Assembly: GCA_964344135.1 (NCBI GenBank)
Contig: CAYFMF010000002.1
Span: 20,015 to 84,014 of the forward strand
Direction: 5' to 3'
Origin: an uncultured Piscirickettsiaceae bacterium
GTDB lineage: Bacteria > Pseudomonadota > Gammaproteobacteria > GCF-002020875
Length of the DNA stretch: 64,000 nucleotides
The position numbers were made by a program, and so were the translations under genes. Below are positions 18,256 through 51,675 of this stretch, piece by piece. The notes under the pieces are model-generated. The model did no database searches and had not been told where the DNA came from. It saw only the letters and a program-made list of their open reading frames with translations. Position 1 is the stretch's first letter; each line of letters opens with the position of its first letter.

Positions 18256-18528
18256 CCTTCCTCTCTGAGTGCCCCATAATCAGTTGAGGCCTCCCCTCCA
18301 TTGCATTGAGTGTAGACACTTTATGTGGCACCGCCCATAAAAACAATTAAGTAATACTTAATGCTCTCTATTGTCTTGCTCGATGCCACCCCCCTGGTAT
18401 GCCGGTCGTGCGATCTCATCAGTTCGGTCAGGAGGTGAGGCGTTACGGTTAGGATGGTCTGGTGTTGAATGGGGGTTTGGACTAGACTCATTACTCACGA
18501 TTTGGGAAAAAGAGTTGGGGGATTGATT

Positions 18529-20079
18529 GTGAAGAGCATTGGTTACTATCTACTGATGGTGCTCTTTTCCGCCTGGGCAGTTGCAGACCCTGTTGCTGAT
18601 CTGGAGGGAAAGAGTGGATATGAGAGGAGGGCATCCATTACCCGCCTTGCTGATACAGCCTGGGGTGGACAGCAGTTCTCCATTGAACGAGGGGTCGAGA
18701 TTCTTCGTGGGCTGACAGGGACGGATCGTTACTATGCGGCCAAATCCCTGCTGGGTTCCAATAGAGAGAGAAGAATCCTGTTGCCAGGGCCACTCTCCGT
18801 GGGAGAGGTCGATACTCTGCTGGAGGGTACGGGCAGGCAGCGACAGGACCTGATTCTACATCTGGCAGATTCCGGGGCCCCTGCCGGAAACCTTGGTGTC
18901 GAGGAGGTGCGCACACTGATTGGGGAGCTGCAGGGGGGAGCGTATGATCGTACCCTCCGATCCCTGCTGGGATCCAACCGGGCCGGGAAAAACTACGCAC
19001 TTGTCCCGTTTGGATCCGCTCAGGTCGACAGGCTTCTTGCTGCCGGGTCAGACCGTGCGGAGATGATCCGTTACATGGCGGATCGGGCGCTTCTGGAGGG
19101 AGGGTTCACTGTCGATGAGGCAGAGCGCATGATGCAGAGCCAGAGCGGGATGGATCGTCATGACTCCGTCAAGGCACTGCTCGGTTCCAATAGCGAGGAG
19201 AGGGACTACCTAACCCTTCCACTTGGATTTGCCGATGCAAAACAGCTGCTGAACGGAGTGGCCTTGCGATCTGAGCTTATCCACTACTTCTCCGACCATG
19301 GGGTGTTTGCCGGCAGATTGAGAGCCAGGGAGGTGGTTCAGCTACTGGATGGGGTTGAGAAGAGAGACCGCTATAGCGTGGTGAGGTCCCTGTTGGGGTT
19401 CAATGAGCAGGAGAGGAGCTATCTCCAGACCCCACTGGCAATGGACGATGCGGGAGCCCTGCTGGAGGGGATGGCCTATCGTGACGAGATGATTGGGCTT
19501 CTGGCCGATCAGGGTGGTCTGGTTGAGGGGTTGAGTGTGGCAGATGCCACTCTCCTGTTGGGTGAGCTTGCACGTGCGGATCGACATGATGCACTCCTCC
19601 CCCTGTTGGGCAACAATGAGCAGGGGGTGAGCTATCTCGAATTGCCTGTTACTGCCGAGGGGGCGGTGCAGTTGATGGAGCGGGCTGCCTACAGAGATGA
19701 GTTGATCGACTTTATGGTAGACCGTGGCCAGCTGGCCGGCCCACTGAGTGCTGATCAGGCGCTTGAGTTGATGACGGGTCTTGTTGGAGAGGTTCGCTAC
19801 AAAACGCTACTCTCTCTGCTGGGTAGTAATGAGCAGGAGGTAAATTATCTTCCCGTGCCAATGGAGCTGCCCGCACTATTGCCACTGCTGGAGCGGATCG
19901 CAAACCGCAAGGCGGCCATCGGATGGGTGGCTGATCACGGTATGATCAAGGGGGAGCTTGGTGAGGAGGAGACAGAGCAGTTGCTGGGGCGCCTCTATGG
20001 TGAGGAGCGTGAGCAAGCGACAGCAATCCTGAAGGGAAAGAATCGGCAGAACAGAAGCTATCTTTCAGAAGCCAGATAA
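18529..20079 (+). CDS. Secreted tandem-repeat protein: Sec signal peptide (MKSIGYYLLMVLFSAWAVA|DP from a GTG start), then six and a half exact 71-aa repeats (consensus LLGsNeqe.sYL.lPl......LLeg.ayRdEmI.y.aD.G.laG.ls.dea..Ll..l.g.dRyd.l.s)
   Basis: Repeat boundaries located by the recurring LLG(S/F/N)N motif. Every unit is 71 or 72 aa. The track ORF begins 60 nt upstream at 18469, but GTG at 18529 has a GGGGGA RBS and yields a canonical signal peptide. Confidence 0.6.
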   Translation: MKSIGYYLLMVLFSAWAVADPVADLEGKSGYERRASITRLADTAWGGQQFSIERGVEILRGLTGTDRYYAAKSLLGSNRERRILLPGPLSVGEVDTLLEGTGRQRQDLILHLADSGAPAGNLGVEEVRTLIGELQGGAYDRTLRSLLGSNRAGKNYALVPFGSAQVDRLLAAGSDRAEMIRYMADRALLEGGFTVDEAERMMQSQSGMDRHDSVKALLGSNSEERDYLTLPLGFADAKQLLNGVALRSELIHYFSDHGVFAGRLRAREVVQLLDGVEKRDRYSVVRSLLGFNEQERSYLQTPLAMDDAGALLEGMAYRDEMIGLLADQGGLVEGLSVADATLLLGELARADRHDALLPLLGNNEQGVSYLELPVTAEGAVQLMERAAYRDELIDFMVDRGQLAGPLSADQALELMTGLVGEVRYKTLLSLLGSNEQEVNYLPVPMELPALLPLLERIANRKAAIGWVADHGMIKGELGEEETEQLLGRLYGEEREQATAILKGKNRQNRSYLSEAR

Positions 20080-20222: not shown

Positions 20223-20534
20223 TGGTGGGCCCACCTGGACTCGAACCAGGGACCAAGGGATTCACTGAATCCAAATGTTTCCATTTGGAGCGGACTATCT
20301 CACCATCCACAGCATGACCTGTTTGGATGCGGGACGCTGTAACCTGTTATTAAGAACACTTTAGTTCTCAGGTAGTCTCTGCACCTTCCAGAGGTGTACC
20401 TCTGGCTTGGCTCAGGGTTGCCATCAGCTGTACTGTTAAGGTTTCCCTGAATTCATCCCGTTCATCCTGGGCCTTTCGGTCCAGGCGCACCATTTTGATG
20501 AGTCCCCTGCTCTAACCAACTGAGCTATAGGCCC
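20223..20534 (-). tRNA. ileX: tRNA-Ile2 (anticodon CAU, lysidine type) interrupted by a group I intron. 5' exon 20534..20498 (37 nt), intron 20497..20263 (235 nt), 3' exon 20262..20223 (40 nt, CCA encoded)
   Basis: The spliced sequence GGGCCTATAGCTCAGTTGGTTAGAGCAGGGGACTCATAATCCCTTGGTCCCTGGTTCGAGTCCAGGTGGGCCCACCA folds as a cloverleaf (7-bp acceptor, GCTC/GAGC D stem, GGGGA/TCCCT anticodon stem, CCTGG/CCAGG T stem). It is near-identical to E. coli ileX. The intron follows the U of CAU and ends in G. Confidence 0.85.
20263..20497 (-). mobile_element. Group I self-splicing intron (IC3-like, Azoarcus tRNA-Ile type), ORF-less, inserted after anticodon position 36
   Basis: GUG internal guide sequence 5 nt into the intron, able to pair with exon CAU. 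Conserved core elements R-like GGTGCAGAGACTAC and S-like GAGATAGTCCGC. GATGGCAACCCTGAGCCAAGC matches the Azoarcus intron segment UAUGGCAACGCCGAGCCAAGC. Terminal G. Confidence 0.8.
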
Positions 20535-45378: not shown

Positions 45379-46206
45379 TTAGTGCTGGCAGCGGGGGCAG
45401 TACCAGGTGGAGCGTTGCCCCTGGACAATCCGTCGGATCGCCCTGCCACATGTTGTACACGGCTCCATATCCCGCCCATAGACGGAGAGTTGCTGCCGGA
45501 AATAGCCGGGACGCCCCTCACTGTTGCGAAAGTCCTGCAGGGTGGTCCCTCCCTGCTCGATGGCGCTGGTCAGGGTCTCCTGGATCGCCTCGGCAAGCCG
45601 ATGGTAGCGCTCTCTCGAGATTCGGTGGCAGCCTCTTCGGGGGTGGATCCCGCTGAGAAAGAGGGCCTCGCAGGCGTAGATGTTGCCGACACCAGTAATG
45701 ACCTTCTGGTCCATGATGAATGACTTGATCGGACCTCTGCGCCTTCTCGAGAGCGCATGGAGGTGGTCGCCAACGCTCTGCGCAGAGTGGCCCTGGAGAA
45801 CGGGCTCAATCCCCAGTCTCTGCAACAGGGGGTGCTGCTCAATGGGCTTCCGGGTATGGAGAACAGCGCCGAAGCGGCGCGGATCGCGGAATCTCAGCAC
45901 CACCCCATTGCCAAGGAGCAGGTCAACATGGTCATGCCTCTTCACAGGGGTCTCCCGGTCAACCACCCTGAGTGTTCCACTCATTCCCAGGTGGATAATG
46001 ATTGTCCCCCGATCGGTCTCCAGCAGCAGATATTTTGCCCGGCGCCTGATGTGGCTGATCATGGCGCCCTCTACCCGGCTACCGATATCCCTGGGGACCG
46101 GCCAGCGCAGGGCGTTCTGTCGGACAACAACCTGGATGATGGTCTGACCACTGGCGGCGGGCTCTATTCCTCTGCGTGTGGTCTCAACCTCTGGGAGTTC
46201 AGGCAT
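45379..46206 (-). CDS. mutM: Formamidopyrimidine-DNA glycosylase
   Basis: MPELPEVE N-terminus and C-terminal zinc finger. Confidence 0.9.
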   Translation of the reverse strand: MPELPEVETTRRGIEPAASGQTIIQVVVRQNALRWPVPRDIGSRVEGAMISHIRRRAKYLLLETDRGTIIIHLGMSGTLRVVDRETPVKRHDHVDLLLGNGVVLRFRDPRRFGAVLHTRKPIEQHPLLQRLGIEPVLQGHSAQSVGDHLHALSRRRRGPIKSFIMDQKVITGVGNIYACEALFLSGIHPRRGCHRISRERYHRLAEAIQETLTSAIEQGGTTLQDFRNSEGRPGYFRQQLSVYGRDMEPCTTCGRAIRRIVQGQRSTWYCPRCQH

Positions 46207-46263
46207 AATAGAAGGTCAAATTTGTTGTTATGGTTGTGGTGCACTTGTAACCGTTCAAATCGC

Positions 46264-46355
46264 TTTCGTACAGTTCAAGAGCAAGGCAGAAAATGTGAGT
46301 TTACAAGGGTAAATGGCCATTTTCTAACACAGCTATTGGGCTGTACGAAAGTGAG
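46264..46355 (+). repeat. About 92-nt conserved structured element, copy 1 (long closing stem around a conserved core), 12 nt upstream of the hyuA-like start codon
   Basis: Aligned with copy 2 at 50030..50121. Confidence 0.6.
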
Positions 46356-46367
46356 GTGAGTGGTTAG

Positions 46368-48335
46368 ATGATTCTGGGTGTCGATACGGGTGGAACCTTC
46401 ACCGATTTCGTGTTGTGGGATGGAGAGCGTCTCCAGATCCACAAGGTGCTGTCGACCCCGGAGGCTCCCGAGCGGGCCATTCTGCAGGGGATTGAGGAGC
46501 TTGCTGCCCCGCTTGATGGATTGACGATTATCCATGGCTCCACGGTTGCCACCAACGCGGTACTGGAGGAGAAGGGTGCACGTACCCTGTTGATTACCAA
46601 CCGCGGATTTGGTGATCTGCTGACCATTGGGCGCCAGGCCCGGCAGGAGCTCTACAACCTGCAGCCAGAGATCATGGCACCACCCGTTCCGGAGAGAGAC
46701 TGCCTGGAGACCGGGGGGCGCGTCAATGCTGTCGGGGAGGTGGTTGAGCCGCTGACGGAGGAGGATCTGGAGGGGCTCAGGAGGCAGGTTGAGCAACGGA
46801 ATCCCGAGGCGGTTGCGATCAACCTGCTCTTCTCCTTTCTCAATCCTGACAGTGAGATGGAGATTGAGTCCATCCTTCCAAAGGGGCTCTTTGTCTCCCG
46901 CTCCTCAAGGGTACTGCCGGAGTATCGTGAGTATGAACGGGGCATTACCACCTGGCTCAACAGCTATGTGGGACCACTGGTTGAGGGTTATCTGCAGCGT
47001 CTGGAGCAGGGGGTTGAGGGGGCACAGCTCTCTGTCATGCAATCCTCGGGAACCACGATATCGGCCGCTCAGGCAGGATCCGGTGCGGTCCACATGCTGT
47101 TATCCGGCCCGGCAGGTGGGTTGGCGGCCGCCCACTACCTGGGACAGCAGCTTGGGCGCGAGCAGCTCCTCACCTTTGATATGGGTGGAACCTCAACCGA
47201 TGTCGCGCTGATTGATGGGGGGGTCCGCCTCACCTCGGAGGGGAGGATTGGCCGTTTCCCAGTGGCTGTGCCCATGGTGGACATGCACACCATTGGTGCC
47301 GGCGGAGGATCGATTGCGCATGTGGATGAGGGGGGGATGCTGCAGGTGGGCCCCGAGTCTGCCGGTGCCTCACCGGGGCCGGCCTGTTACGGAAAGGGAG
47401 GGGTCGAGGCGAGCGTTACGGATGCCAACCTGGTGTTGGGCAGGCTATTGCCAGAGGCCTTTCTGGGGGGAGGAATGGTGCTGGATTCCGGGGCCGCCGA
47501 GTGTGCGGTGGGCGGAGTGGCAAGGGATCTGGAGTGCTCCATGAGCGAGGCCGCCGAGGGGATTATCCGGGTCGCCAATGAGCATATGTCACATGCGCTG
47601 CGTGTCATTTCGGTACAGCGCGGGATCGATCCGCGAGGTTTTACACTGACCTCCTTTGGCGGGGCGGGTGGTCTCCATGTCTGTGCGCTGGCAGAGTCGC
47701 TTGGGCTGCGTCATGCAATGATCCCCATTCATGGCGGGGTGCTCTCTGCGCTTGGGATGCTGGTTGCCCCCCGGGGTCGGGAGCTCTCAAGGTCAATGGT
47801 GATGCCACTCGCTGAGCAGGGTGATGCGTTGATGGAGCTGGCATTCGGCAGGCTGGAGCAGCAGGGGATCCTGGCCCTTGTCAGGGAGGGGGTGGCGGAG
47901 CAGAGGATCGATACCGTTAGAACGGTTGATCTCCGTTATCGGGGGCAGTCCTTTACGCTGAATGTCGGGTGGGAGAGTTGCAGTGCGGTGGAGGAGGGGT
48001 TCCACCGGGCCCACCAGGAGCGATATGGCCACTGCTTTGAGTTTCCGGTCGAGCTGGTCAACCTTCGGGTGGTGGTTCGGGAGCGGCTGGAGTCACCGAC
48101 TCTGCTGCAGGGGGAGAGGCCTGATGAACCGCATGAGACCGGGCGAACCCTGTTGGTGGGGATTGGTGAGGTTCCGGTCTACCGGCGGCAGCAGTTGGCA
48201 ACAGGGGATACGGTGCAGGGGCCGGCACTGATTACGGAACAGGTCTCCACCTCACTGATTGCAGAGGGGTGGAGCTGTGAGGTGGATGCAAGCGGGACAC
48301 TGCTGCTGGAGCGAGGCCAGTCCGATACAGGGTGA
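46368..48335 (+). CDS. Hydantoinase/oxoprolinase family protein (HyuA-like), no hyuB partner nearby
   Basis: 655 aa, ILGVDTGGTFTD N-terminus. Confidence 0.75.
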   Translation: MILGVDTGGTFTDFVLWDGERLQIHKVLSTPEAPERAILQGIEELAAPLDGLTIIHGSTVATNAVLEEKGARTLLITNRGFGDLLTIGRQARQELYNLQPEIMAPPVPERDCLETGGRVNAVGEVVEPLTEEDLEGLRRQVEQRNPEAVAINLLFSFLNPDSEMEIESILPKGLFVSRSSRVLPEYREYERGITTWLNSYVGPLVEGYLQRLEQGVEGAQLSVMQSSGTTISAAQAGSGAVHMLLSGPAGGLAAAHYLGQQLGREQLLTFDMGGTSTDVALIDGGVRLTSEGRIGRFPVAVPMVDMHTIGAGGGSIAHVDEGGMLQVGPESAGASPGPACYGKGGVEASVTDANLVLGRLLPEAFLGGGMVLDSGAAECAVGGVARDLECSMSEAAEGIIRVANEHMSHALRVISVQRGIDPRGFTLTSFGGAGGLHVCALAESLGLRHAMIPIHGGVLSALGMLVAPRGRELSRSMVMPLAEQGDALMELAFGRLEQQGILALVREGVAEQRIDTVRTVDLRYRGQSFTLNVGWESCSAVEEGFHRAHQERYGHCFEFPVELVNLRVVVRERLESPTLLQGERPDEPHETGRTLLVGIGEVPVYRRQQLATGDTVQGPALITEQVSTSLIAEGWSCEVDASGTLLLERGQSDTG

Positions 48336-48369
48336 TGTGTCCATGCTGCTCTTCAATAGGAAAACGCAC

Positions 48370-48398
48370 AAAAAAGCCCGCAACATGCGGGCTTTTTT
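48370..48398. terminator. Bidirectional rho-independent terminator (AAAAAA-GCCCGC-AACAT-GCGGGC-TTTTTT)
   Basis: Perfect 6-bp GC stem flanked by A and T tracts. Serves the hyuA-like gene (+) and rpmG (-). Confidence 0.7.
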
Positions 48399-48415
48399 GC
48401 GATTATGACGCCATT

Positions 48416-49990: not shown

Positions 49991-50029
49991 GTGGATTTGC
50001 ATTTGTCCCTATATAGGCTGTCAGGTTGT

Positions 50030-50121
50030 TCTTGTATGGTCCAGGAGCAAGGCAGTAAATGTGAGTTTACAAATGTAACTGTCCATTTTTTAACGCGGCT
50101 ATTGGACCGTACAAGAGTGAG
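50030..50121 (+). repeat. About 92-nt conserved structured element, copy 2, 10 nt upstream of the ugd start codon
   Basis: Aligned with copy 1 at 46264..46355. Confidence 0.6.
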
Positions 50122-50131
50122 ATAGCAGTTT

Positions 50132-51301
50132 ATGAAGATAGCAATTGCCGGTACCGGCTATGTCGGACTCTCCAATGCGGTACTGCTGGCTCAGCACAAT
50201 AATGTGGTGGCGCTCGACATCATTCCCGAGAAGATCGAGATGCTCAATCGCGGGGAGTCCCCAATTGTTGATGAGGAGATTGAGGCGTTCCTGCAGAGCC
50301 GGGATCTCGATTTCCGGGCCACCCTGGACAAGGAGGAGGCCTACCAGGGGGCGGATTTCGTCATTATCGCCACTCCTACCGACTACGATCCAGAGAGTAA
50401 CTACTTCAATACGGGATCGATCGAGGCGGTGATCCAGGATGTAATGGAGAGTAACCCTGATGCAGTGATGGTGATCAAGTCCACTGTGCCGGTGGGGTAC
50501 ACACACAAGGTCAGGGAGCAGTTTGGCTGTGACAATATCCTCTTCTCCCCGGAGTTCCTGCGGGAGGGGAGGGCGCTCTACGACAATCTCCACCCCTCAC
50601 GCATCATTGTGGGTGAACAGTCCGAGCGGGCCAGAAAGTTTGCCGATCTGCTGGTTGAGGGGGCAGAAAAAACCGATATTCCCGTCCTCTTTACCCACTC
50701 CACCGAGGCGGAGGCGGTCAAGCTCTTCTCCAACACCTACCTGGCGATGCGGGTTGCCTACTTCAATGAGCTCGATACCTATGCCCAGGTGCATGGCCTT
50801 GACAGCAGACAGATCATTGAGGGGGTTGGGCTGGATCCAAGAATCGGCACCCACTACAACAACCCCTCCTTCGGCTATGGGGGCTACTGCCTCCCCAAGG
50901 ACACCAAGCAGCTGCGGGCCAACTACCAGGATGTTCCCAACAACCTGATTCGTGCCATTGTGGAGGCCAACACCACCCGCAAGGACTTTATTGCCGACAC
51001 AATTCTTGCCAGAACCCCAGAGGTGGTTGGGGTCTATCGCCTGATCATGAAGAGTGGCTCCGACAACTTCCGCGCCTCCTCGATCCAGGGGATCATGAAG
51101 CGGATCAAGGCGAAGGGAATCGAGGTGGTGATCTATGAACCGGTGCTGGAGGAGGATGAGTTCTACCACTCAAGGGTGATCCGGGATCTGGAATCCTTCA
51201 AGCAGCAGTCGGATGTGATCATCGCCAACCGTCTCTCGGATGAGATTCTCGATGTGGAGGAGAAGGTGGTTACCCGTGATCTTTTCGGTAGTGATAGTTG
51301 A
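50132..51301 (+). CDS. ugd: UDP-glucose 6-dehydrogenase
   Basis: [12 protein letters not shown]. Confidence 0.9.
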
Positions 51302-51675
51302 TAGTGGTAGTGAGTAGTGTAAGTAGCTATCAGGATTTGGAGATATGGAAGAGGAGTATTTATCTCGTAGAGCAAGTTTATATGCTGGTTAAGCAGTTGC
51401 CACGAGAAGAGACCTATGCGCTATCAGACCAGATGAGAAGGGCTGCGGTCTCCATACCGAGCAACATCGCTGAAGGGGCGAGCAGAAACTCAACCAAAGA
51501 GTACATTCAGTTCCTCTACATAGCGCTAGGATCTGCTGCTGAATTGGAAACACAGTTGATTATTGGAGAAAGAATCGGTTACTTCCGGGCAATTAATGCT
51601 ATAAAACAATCGCTTGTTGAAATCAAAAAGATGCTCCATGGCTTGATTTCATCCTTGAAAAGAAAAGAGAGATGA
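51298..51675 (+). CDS. Four-helix-bundle protein (the family often found in 23S rRNA intervening sequences and polysaccharide loci), AT-rich gene
   Basis: [11 protein letters not shown]...[26 protein letters not shown] family signature. Confidence 0.6.

Follow-up and report, generated by a model that had tools for sequence, protein, structure and literature searches.

A probable new family of 121-nt palindromic repeats in uncultured Gammaproteobacteria, with one copy each in front of hyuA and ugd

The stretch analysed here (the window) comprises 64,000 nucleotides of contig CAYFMF010000002.1 from an uncultured Piscirickettsiaceae bacterium (assembly GCA_964344135.1, positions 20,015 to 84,014, forward strand). 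Its plus strand carries the gene of a hyuA-like hydantoinase/oxoprolinase (46368-48335; Pfam Hydantoinase_A and Hydant_A_N), called hyuA below, and ugd for UDP-glucose 6-dehydrogenase (50132-51301), which by Pfam and by synteny in relatives is the first gene of a lipopolysaccharide-core heptose cluster. One copy of a structured, non-coding element lies in front of each gene. An earlier note on this DNA had aligned 46264-46355 with 50030-50121 at an offset of 3766, and this match was recovered without a gap. A 28-nt pattern describing the core occurred at these two places only in the window, with an expectation of 0 from 100 shuffles. Comparison with other copies showed that the 92 nt delimited at first correspond to the inner three quarters of a 121-nt unit, at 46247-46367 and 50013-50133, both on the plus strand. 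The part that had been missed is an outer 11-bp helix, P1, which surrounds the stem described in the earlier note, here P2. A covariance model, R1, was built from an alignment, A2, of 74 distinct copies. It matched both units over their full length, copy 1 with 117.5 bits (E = 4e-28, model positions 1-121, against 45.8 bits for the reverse strand) and copy 2 with 103.8 bits (E = 2e-24), and with its filters off it revealed no third copy in the window.

Copy 1 occupies most of the divergent spacer between fpg and hyuA. In the covariance-model alignment and the predicted folds, the 5' strand of P1 (46247-46257) is followed by the 5' strand of P2 and P2b (46260-46282), which includes the 5' stem strand of the earlier note, and by AAGGC (46283-46287), the 5' half of an internal loop, which is invariant in A2. 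An inner hairpin (46289-46324) consists of P3 (GAAAAUG/CAUUUUC), the loops UGAG/UGGC, P4 (GUUUAC/GUAAAU) and the apical AAGG. The 3' half of the internal loop is AACAC at 46326-46330, where the family consensus is AACGC. The 3' strand of P2b and P2 (46332-46354) then leads into a Shine-Dalgarno (SD)-like P2/P1 junction, GUGAGG (46351-46356), which is mostly paired in the predicted fold, and the 3' strand of P1 (46357-46367) ends directly 5' of the hyuA ATG at 46368. Copy 2 lies between the stop codon of an ilvE-like gene (49990) and ugd, with AAGGC at 50049-50053, AACGC at 50092-50096 and an SD-like junction, AGUGAG, at 50116-50121. Its P1 runs 2 nt into the ugd ATG at 50132, so that the final two bases of the unit are the AT of that codon; near the ugd start it reads AGATAGCAGTT / AGATAGCAATT. 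Folding of the two 92-nt segments predicted a 15-bp closing stem in each (−36.4 and −33.4 kcal/mol, z = −7.7 and −5.0), as had been proposed. Read column by column, the folds contained the three double changes listed earlier (U-A to C-G, C-G to U-A and A-U to G-C) and the conversions of G.U to Watson-Crick pairs, together with further one-sided changes to or from G.U. The purine-rich AGUGAG(G) 3' of the stem and the distances of 12 nt to the hyuA ATG and 10 nt to the ugd ATG were likewise as claimed.

The consensus structure of A2 comprises, from the base up, P1 (11 bp), a short unpaired junction with one mismatch, P2 and P2b (~22 bp), the internal loop, P3, a small loop, P4 and a variable apical loop. 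Standard pairs made up 96.6% of the paired cells, compared with 85.4% in shuffles and ~40% when the partners were slid by 1-3 columns. Changes on both sides were found for 30 of the 46 pairs (19.1 in shuffles) and for 325 cells (65.4 in shuffles), and none of 500 shuffles matched any of the observed pairing values. Covariation extended over all 11 pairs of P1 and 19 of the 22 pairs of P2. The earlier suggestion that selection acts on pairing and not on sequence, made from two copies, thus holds with 30 of 46 pairs covarying over 74.

A search with the covariance model for further copies, which the earlier note had put forward as a check, yielded divergent members in the fetched loci (L numbers), namely L077:2711-2832, L097:7318-7438, L092:7089-7229 and L109:375-497. 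In these four, P3 and P4 are replaced by unrelated helices that are still paired. Common to every member is the internal loop 5'-AAGGC / 5'-AACGC(A), closed by the 3-bp P2b; its two strands, read antiparallel, could form A.G / G-C / G.A, a pseudo-symmetric purine loop. The arms vary freely provided that they pair, and the internal loop stays fixed, which is the reverse of what is seen in MITEs (miniature inverted-repeat transposable elements) and in REPINs. Some copies have an extra small hairpin at loop positions, with the remainder of the structure undisturbed, and about one third have an additional 5' module (R'), in which the right arm (R) recurs as its reverse complement. A 56-nt perfect palindrome at L114:4548-4603 consists of the right arm and its reverse complement (R'-R) without the core and appears, from its sequence, to be a coreless derivative of the element. 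Separately, three element copies in the metagenome-assembled genome (MAG) JALWKV (L100:1623-1811, L030 and L058) contain a different, MITE-like insert of ~190 nt in the apical loop of P4, with inverted ends CCTAnCGTTGCATAAA and TTTAC duplicated on both sides.

The pairs of P1 and P2 also indicate which strand folds. G.T and T.G together filled 336 cells, A.C and C.A 26. We therefore take the plus strand to be the folded one, in agreement with the earlier note, and R1 scored copies at ~120-140 bits on this strand and 45-70 bits on the other. The bias was 108 to 11 in copies antisense to both neighbours and 69 to 8 in sense copies, so that one strand, as RNA or as single-stranded DNA, has been selected to fold whatever the direction of the neighbouring genes. 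A link between orientation and replication was considered and rejected: GC skew on the element strand was positive for 47 copies and negative for 60.

Selection on the plus-strand fold in every genomic orientation would suit a family of independently transcribed small structured RNAs, such as a protein sponge or a processed small RNA, with their own promoters and with gene adjacency as a secondary matter. The invariant internal loop framed by covarying helices, as in functional RNAs, and the tolerance of small inserted hairpins at loop positions fit such a family as well. However, no promoter is conserved upstream of the copies; the 5' module, present in the minority mentioned above, scans in L082 as outward-facing promoter sites only. 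Most copies have neither a terminator nor a U-run after P1, and in several the P1 helix includes start codons and coding sequence. To our knowledge, 20-30 near-identical small RNA genes per genome would be unusual. We regard this explanation as quite unlikely.

Beyond the window, JGI metagenomes yielded three additional copies to a 23-nt core pattern; their arms were wholly different and fully complementary. A 20-nt core pattern matched at least 119 stretches in species-representative genomes; among the matches listed, two were due to chance (Lentilactobacillus and Saprospiraceae) and the remainder fell in ~20 gammaproteobacterial MAG species labelled Piscirickettsiaceae, Thiomicrorhabdus, Sedimenticola, Cellvibrionaceae or unclassified. 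Four MAGs contained at least 30, 24, 17 and 12 loci, with near-identical copies within a MAG. Neither window copy matched a family of Rfam 15, at the gathering threshold or at E up to 10, which is consistent with the earlier failure to recognise a known riboswitch class. Viral contigs and phage and plasmid collections held no similar sequence, and a full-text literature search, directed at the core sequence and at Thiomicrospira repeats, returned nothing relevant. The element is thus probably a previously undescribed family of dispersed, non-coding, 121-nt palindromic repeats of uncultured Gammaproteobacteria, widely distributed among those of the sulfur cycle, and its unusually clean covariation yields an alignment that can at once seed an RNA-family entry and serve in annotation masking. 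Of the options that had been left side by side, a structured repeat family is borne out by these numbers, with tens of copies per genome; a cis-regulatory leader dedicated to hyuA and ugd is contradicted by the distribution and by the empty sites described below.

A local duplication in this contig, with randomly drifted flanks and covariation by chance, could account for the window taken by itself, in which there are just two copies, on the same strand and 3.8 kb apart. It is refuted by the more than 100 copies that other organisms carry, whose fully paired arms are of many kinds, and by an orthologous copy before hyuA in another lineage (L047), whose hyuA protein is only 73% identical to that of the window. 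The earlier note had named a recent duplication with random flank drift as the finding that would overturn it, and the covariation together with the orthologous copy excludes this.

The genomic contexts are diverse. By crude greedy open reading frame (ORF) calls, on which these counts rest, co-directional genes enclose 35 antisense and 20 sense copies, while divergent spacers contain 20 copies and convergent ones 12. The neighbouring genes are functionally unrelated (hyuA, ugd and those of DapF, an aminotransferase, Cpn60, S1, DsrC, E2, HslV and LpxK). For 44 of 95 copies a long opposite-strand ORF has its stop codon between −25 and +6 nt relative to the element's 3' end, a number that includes some shadow ORFs in the −4 and −23 classes (2 of 10 sampled). 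Pfam-confirmed genes that end at the 3' edge of an element encode Cpn60 (L004; L029 and L046 share this site), DsrC, for which the match reaches the final position of the profile, ribosomal protein S1, the E2 of a 2-oxoacid dehydrogenase, a PEP-utilising enzyme and an HslV-type subunit, and the element itself encodes the C-termini of an HD-domain protein (NYSAHP*) and of LpxK (AYP*). Sense copies whose 3' end abuts or contains a start codon comprise both window copies, those of L047 (hyuA), L066, L012 (DapF) and L084 (aminotransferase), and probably that of L108, where the gene was named from a reading of its N-terminus; in L012 and L084 the start codon itself lies inside the 3' strand of P1. 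This subfamily has the signature CAAGAGC...GCUAUUGG. On its 3' side the P2/P1 junction is always SD-like, reading GGGGUGAG, GUGAGG or GGAGG. The core's small ORFs, ATG-TGA and a frame of 13 codons, lack conservation across the subfamilies, and none of the sites for CRP, TyrR, IHF, sigma-54 or sigma-E fits the core when compared by eye.

The sense copies bear on the first option of the earlier note, a cis-regulatory leader, taken here as a dedicated one, riboswitch-like or protein-binding, by which hyuA, ugd and similar genes would answer to one signal. Both window copies are in sense orientation, immediately 5' of an ATG and SD-bearing; the same arrangement recurs before hyuA of L047, DapF, the aminotransferase and other genes; and, as in riboswitches and ribosomal-protein leaders, conserved unpaired nucleotides are framed by covarying helices, the closing one of which sequesters SD and AUG. 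Yet the majority of copies are outside leaders, being antisense, after stop codons or between convergent genes, and those that do precede genes are followed by functions without relation to each other. The family thus shows neither a sense location in 5' leaders nor a coherent gene set; it is not confined to one regulon, it has no Rfam family, and close relatives have empty sites at the same positions. The predicted closing helix of ~33 bp (−60 kcal/mol) would moreover be far too stable for ligand switching. A dedicated leader is, in our judgement, very improbable.

Orthologous positions in relatives show where copies are present and where they are absent. At the hyuA site, a copy is present in the window and in L047, a Piscirickettsiaceae MAG with the order fpg-[element]-hyuA and the element touching the ATG. 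In L010/L130 and in L129 the site is empty: the 22-23 nt found there (L010:3231-3252, L130:2098-2119 and L129:2282-2304) consist of TATAAT, 7 nt and ATG, with no SD sequence, and the promoter overlaps the start of the divergent fpg. In these relatives hyuA is probably leaderless. Identity among the four hyuA lineages is 70-76%, and the two with a filled site do not group as sisters. The arms of the window and L047 copies are nonetheless mutual nearest neighbours, and several of their differences are compensatory. The two elements are 84.3% identical, compared with 78.3, 84.5 and 50.5% at hyuA codon positions 1, 2 and 3, and the adjacent spacer cannot be aligned. By this comparison, resident copies can be constrained about as strongly as amino-acid-determining positions.

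At the ugd site, the stop codon of the ilvE-like gene overlaps or abuts the ugd ATG in L125-L127, L129 and L132, a TAATG overlap being read in L125-L127, and L128 has a 27-nt spacer without the element. In L130 the same junction holds an unrelated GC-rich palindromic repeat (L130:5904-6033; CCTCCCCCTTGAGGGGG...CCTCCTTCGAGGGGGAAGG), and L131, the same organism as L130 judging by gene layout, has a spacer of equal size; small inserts of more than one kind are apparently tolerated at this junction. A third position lies directly after the hyuA stop codon, where L010/L130 have a copy and the window has none. Further orthologous sets, L007/L029/L046 and L060/L064, share the site and have arms that have diverged and are still paired. 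Presence and absence at orthologous sites are thus established 5' of hyuA, 3' of hyuA and at the ilvE-like/ugd junction. Because filled and empty positions coexist among relatives, sites turn over, and in the course of evolution the family gains and loses them. As reconstructed from these relatives, one copy entered the 22-nt space between promoter and ATG of an originally leaderless hyuA, and the other the overlapping stop/start junction of the ilvE-like gene and ugd. This amounts to a natural experiment in which a leaderless hyuA and a translationally coupled ilvE-like/ugd pair were each turned into a gene with a long, structured, SD-donating leader, and in which expression before and after insertion can be compared directly between close relatives.

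Within the window, each copy appears to form essentially the whole leader or intercistronic RNA of hyuA or ugd. In predicted folds of leader and coding-sequence start (−59.9 and −46.4 kcal/mol), the SD lies within P2/P1 and the AUG at the helix edge; each copy supplies the sole SD-like sequence of its gene and would hold it in a helix of ~33 bp that ends at the AUG. Taking these observations together, we consider the best account, and a fairly probable one, to be that the element is a MITE- or REPIN-like structured repeat which has been co-opted here as an SD-bearing and SD-sequestering leader hairpin. Our confidence in the molecular mechanism is much lower than that in the identity of the element.

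The closest functional precedent would be the Correia/ERIC class of bacterial MITEs. Long stem-loop transcripts of bacterial MITEs regulate neighbouring mRNAs (PMC2229807), and Correia transcripts are bound or cut by RNase III, with altered expression of the neighbouring gene (PMC2649163, PMC2229807). The Correia elements of Neisseria (CREE/NEMIS) resemble the present element in being non-coding and multicopy, ~100-155 bp long, with a long end-to-end stem and a conserved core; like it, they are inserted beside genes and are present or absent at orthologous sites. They differ in their conserved 24-26-bp terminal inverted repeats, their TA duplication and their IHF site, whereas the element has nearly fully variable, covarying arms, no duplication that could be seen, no sequence similarity and another host group. 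Measured against the description of a MITE, it stays at 121 nt below the bound of 200-300 bp and is non-coding, multicopy and dispersed, but it has no terminal inverted repeats of conserved sequence, its ends being always complementary and freely variable. The REPINs of REPIN/RAYT systems likewise have a predicted hairpin of ~100 nt, in single-stranded DNA or mRNA, with compensatory changes; they too number tens to hundreds of copies, persist for long in a lineage and include an asymmetric 5' piece that complements the 3' end (PMC3116915). In REPINs, however, the terminal REP 16-mers are invariant and the spacer is variable (PMC3116915), whereas the element has a fixed centre and variable ends. 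ERIC/IRU and YPAL sequences of enterobacteria are imperfect palindromes of ~127-168 bp found in transcribed intergenic regions in either orientation, and the two proteins ending in element-encoded residues may be set beside them. ERIC has short inverted repeats, TA ends and no sequence relation to the element, in which covariation is far more extensive. The element thus seems to work like a MITE or a REPIN and yet fails a defining feature of each.

Several observations weigh against the reading as a co-opted mobile repeat. No direct repeat flanks the unit as a target-site duplication, and pairing in P1 continues to the very end, positions 1 and 2 also covarying. In the 8-kb flanks (0.9 Mb in total) the recurrent proteins are sensor kinases and ABC transporters only, with no recurrent transposase or RAYT-like gene, and no longer parent element or insertion sequence with the same ends was seen there. 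The arms, usually the part recognised by a transposase, are the least conserved and the centre the most conserved; the invariance of inner helices and core in A2 is, for its part, partly a matter of ascertainment, since the search required an exact 20-nt core that included the 5' strands of P3 and P4. As to a leader function, no sigma-70-type promoter points into the element at copy 1 or in the one canonical copy scanned (L082), and a role solely inside the mRNAs of neighbours leaves the G.U bias of antisense copies unexplained. Candidate −10 boxes were noted by eye at 46204-46209 (CATAAT) and 46229-46234 (TGTTATGGT). The ends GTAAC...GTTAC contain TA, but these bases covary as pairs, and the filled and empty sites are too diverged for the junction to be defined.

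Other possibilities were tried and rejected. The P2 arms gave no sign of acting as guides, as their match to flanking DNA was no better than that of the arms of other copies. Copying of P1 from host DNA or a target duplication found no support, the 3' strand of P1 and the downstream flank agreeing at the control level over 90 copies. An integron attC site does not fit the variable ends, which deviate, by eye, from the RYYYAAC / GTTRRRY consensus of the R''/R' boxes, nor the copies, which are single and scattered, with no cassette arrays.

A purely selfish replicator of single-stranded DNA, of the REPIN/RAYT or IS200/IS605-PATE type, whose plus-strand hairpin and internal loop would serve as substrate for a single-copy HUH/Y1-type or other enzyme encoded elsewhere in the genome and whose effects on hyuA and ugd would be only incidental, would account for the strand-specific fold regardless of neighbour orientation, for the high copy number with near-identical copies inside a MAG, and for the gain and loss of sites. 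The 5' R' module of some copies and the coreless R'-R palindrome recall the 5' tail of a REPIN intermediate (PMC3116915). Against this, the orthologous copy at hyuA has been kept at 84% identity despite the saturation of silent sites and has undergone compensatory changes there, and this conservation in situ counts against pure selfishness because selection for replication does not by itself purify a copy already resident. The variable ends and conserved centre are the opposite of REPINs, orientation shows no bias with respect to GC skew, and the flanks contain no RAYT. We regard pure selfishness as unlikely.

For the co-opted leader hairpin, a mechanism can be outlined by analogy. Because the helix sequesters the only SD-like sequence, expression of hyuA and ugd would depend on its fate, that is, on cleavage by a double-strand RNase (e.g. 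RNase III), on unwinding or on protection of the mRNA end. A helix of ~33 bp would be a textbook substrate for such an RNase and could act as a strong block or as a protective cap. The invariant internal loop would most plausibly dock a trans-acting protein, be it the element's copying enzyme or a factor that binds RNA. A protein that copies the element by a single-stranded DNA route (REPIN/RAYT-like or IS200/605-like) would be favoured by the R' module and by the strand bias of antisense copies, and conservation in situ would favour, together with the exact placement at starts and stops, one that regulates RNA. The free arms, the fixed centre and the plus-strand fold in any orientation point to a recognition factor and a copying mechanism that are not yet known. 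A more far-reaching possibility, which we put forward tentatively, is a new class of structured nucleic-acid module, a portable post-transcriptional switch in which the purine loop is read by a dedicated protein and each copy, located precisely at a translation start or stop, brings its own SD, placing dozens of unrelated genes under one factor as a mobile riboregulon. If so, the purifying selection in situ would reflect host function and not selfish copying.

Some other features of the window were noted. Between ugd and an epimerase gene, at 51298-51675 (plus strand), lies a gene for a '23S rRNA intervening-sequence protein' (PF05635). No gene occupies this position in L125-L129 and L132, and an HTH_3 gene does so in L130/L131; the position may be a second insertion hot spot of the same operon as the ugd junction. 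On the minus strand at 20223-20534, a group I intron (20271-20509; Rfam RF00028, 76.5 bits) splits a tRNA gene in the anticodon loop. The exons, GGGCCTATAGCTCAGTTGGTTAGAGCAGGGGACTCAT | AATCCC...CCA, give the anticodon CAT. Default ARAGORN missed this gene, and its intron mode called a tRNA-Gln(ctg) with a 235-nt intron; the gene resembles the known intron-bearing tRNA-Ile(CAU) of Azoarcus. Adjoining it is a 536-aa ORF without a Pfam match (18469-20079, plus strand), with five direct copies of a unit of exactly 213 nt (71 aa) at 19175-20064. Finally, the space between hyuA and rpmG contains a GC-rich hairpin of 16 bp, flanked on either side by A/T runs (48367-48401); it gave spurious weak Rfam matches to Thr and Trp leaders on both strands and looks like a bidirectional intrinsic terminator.

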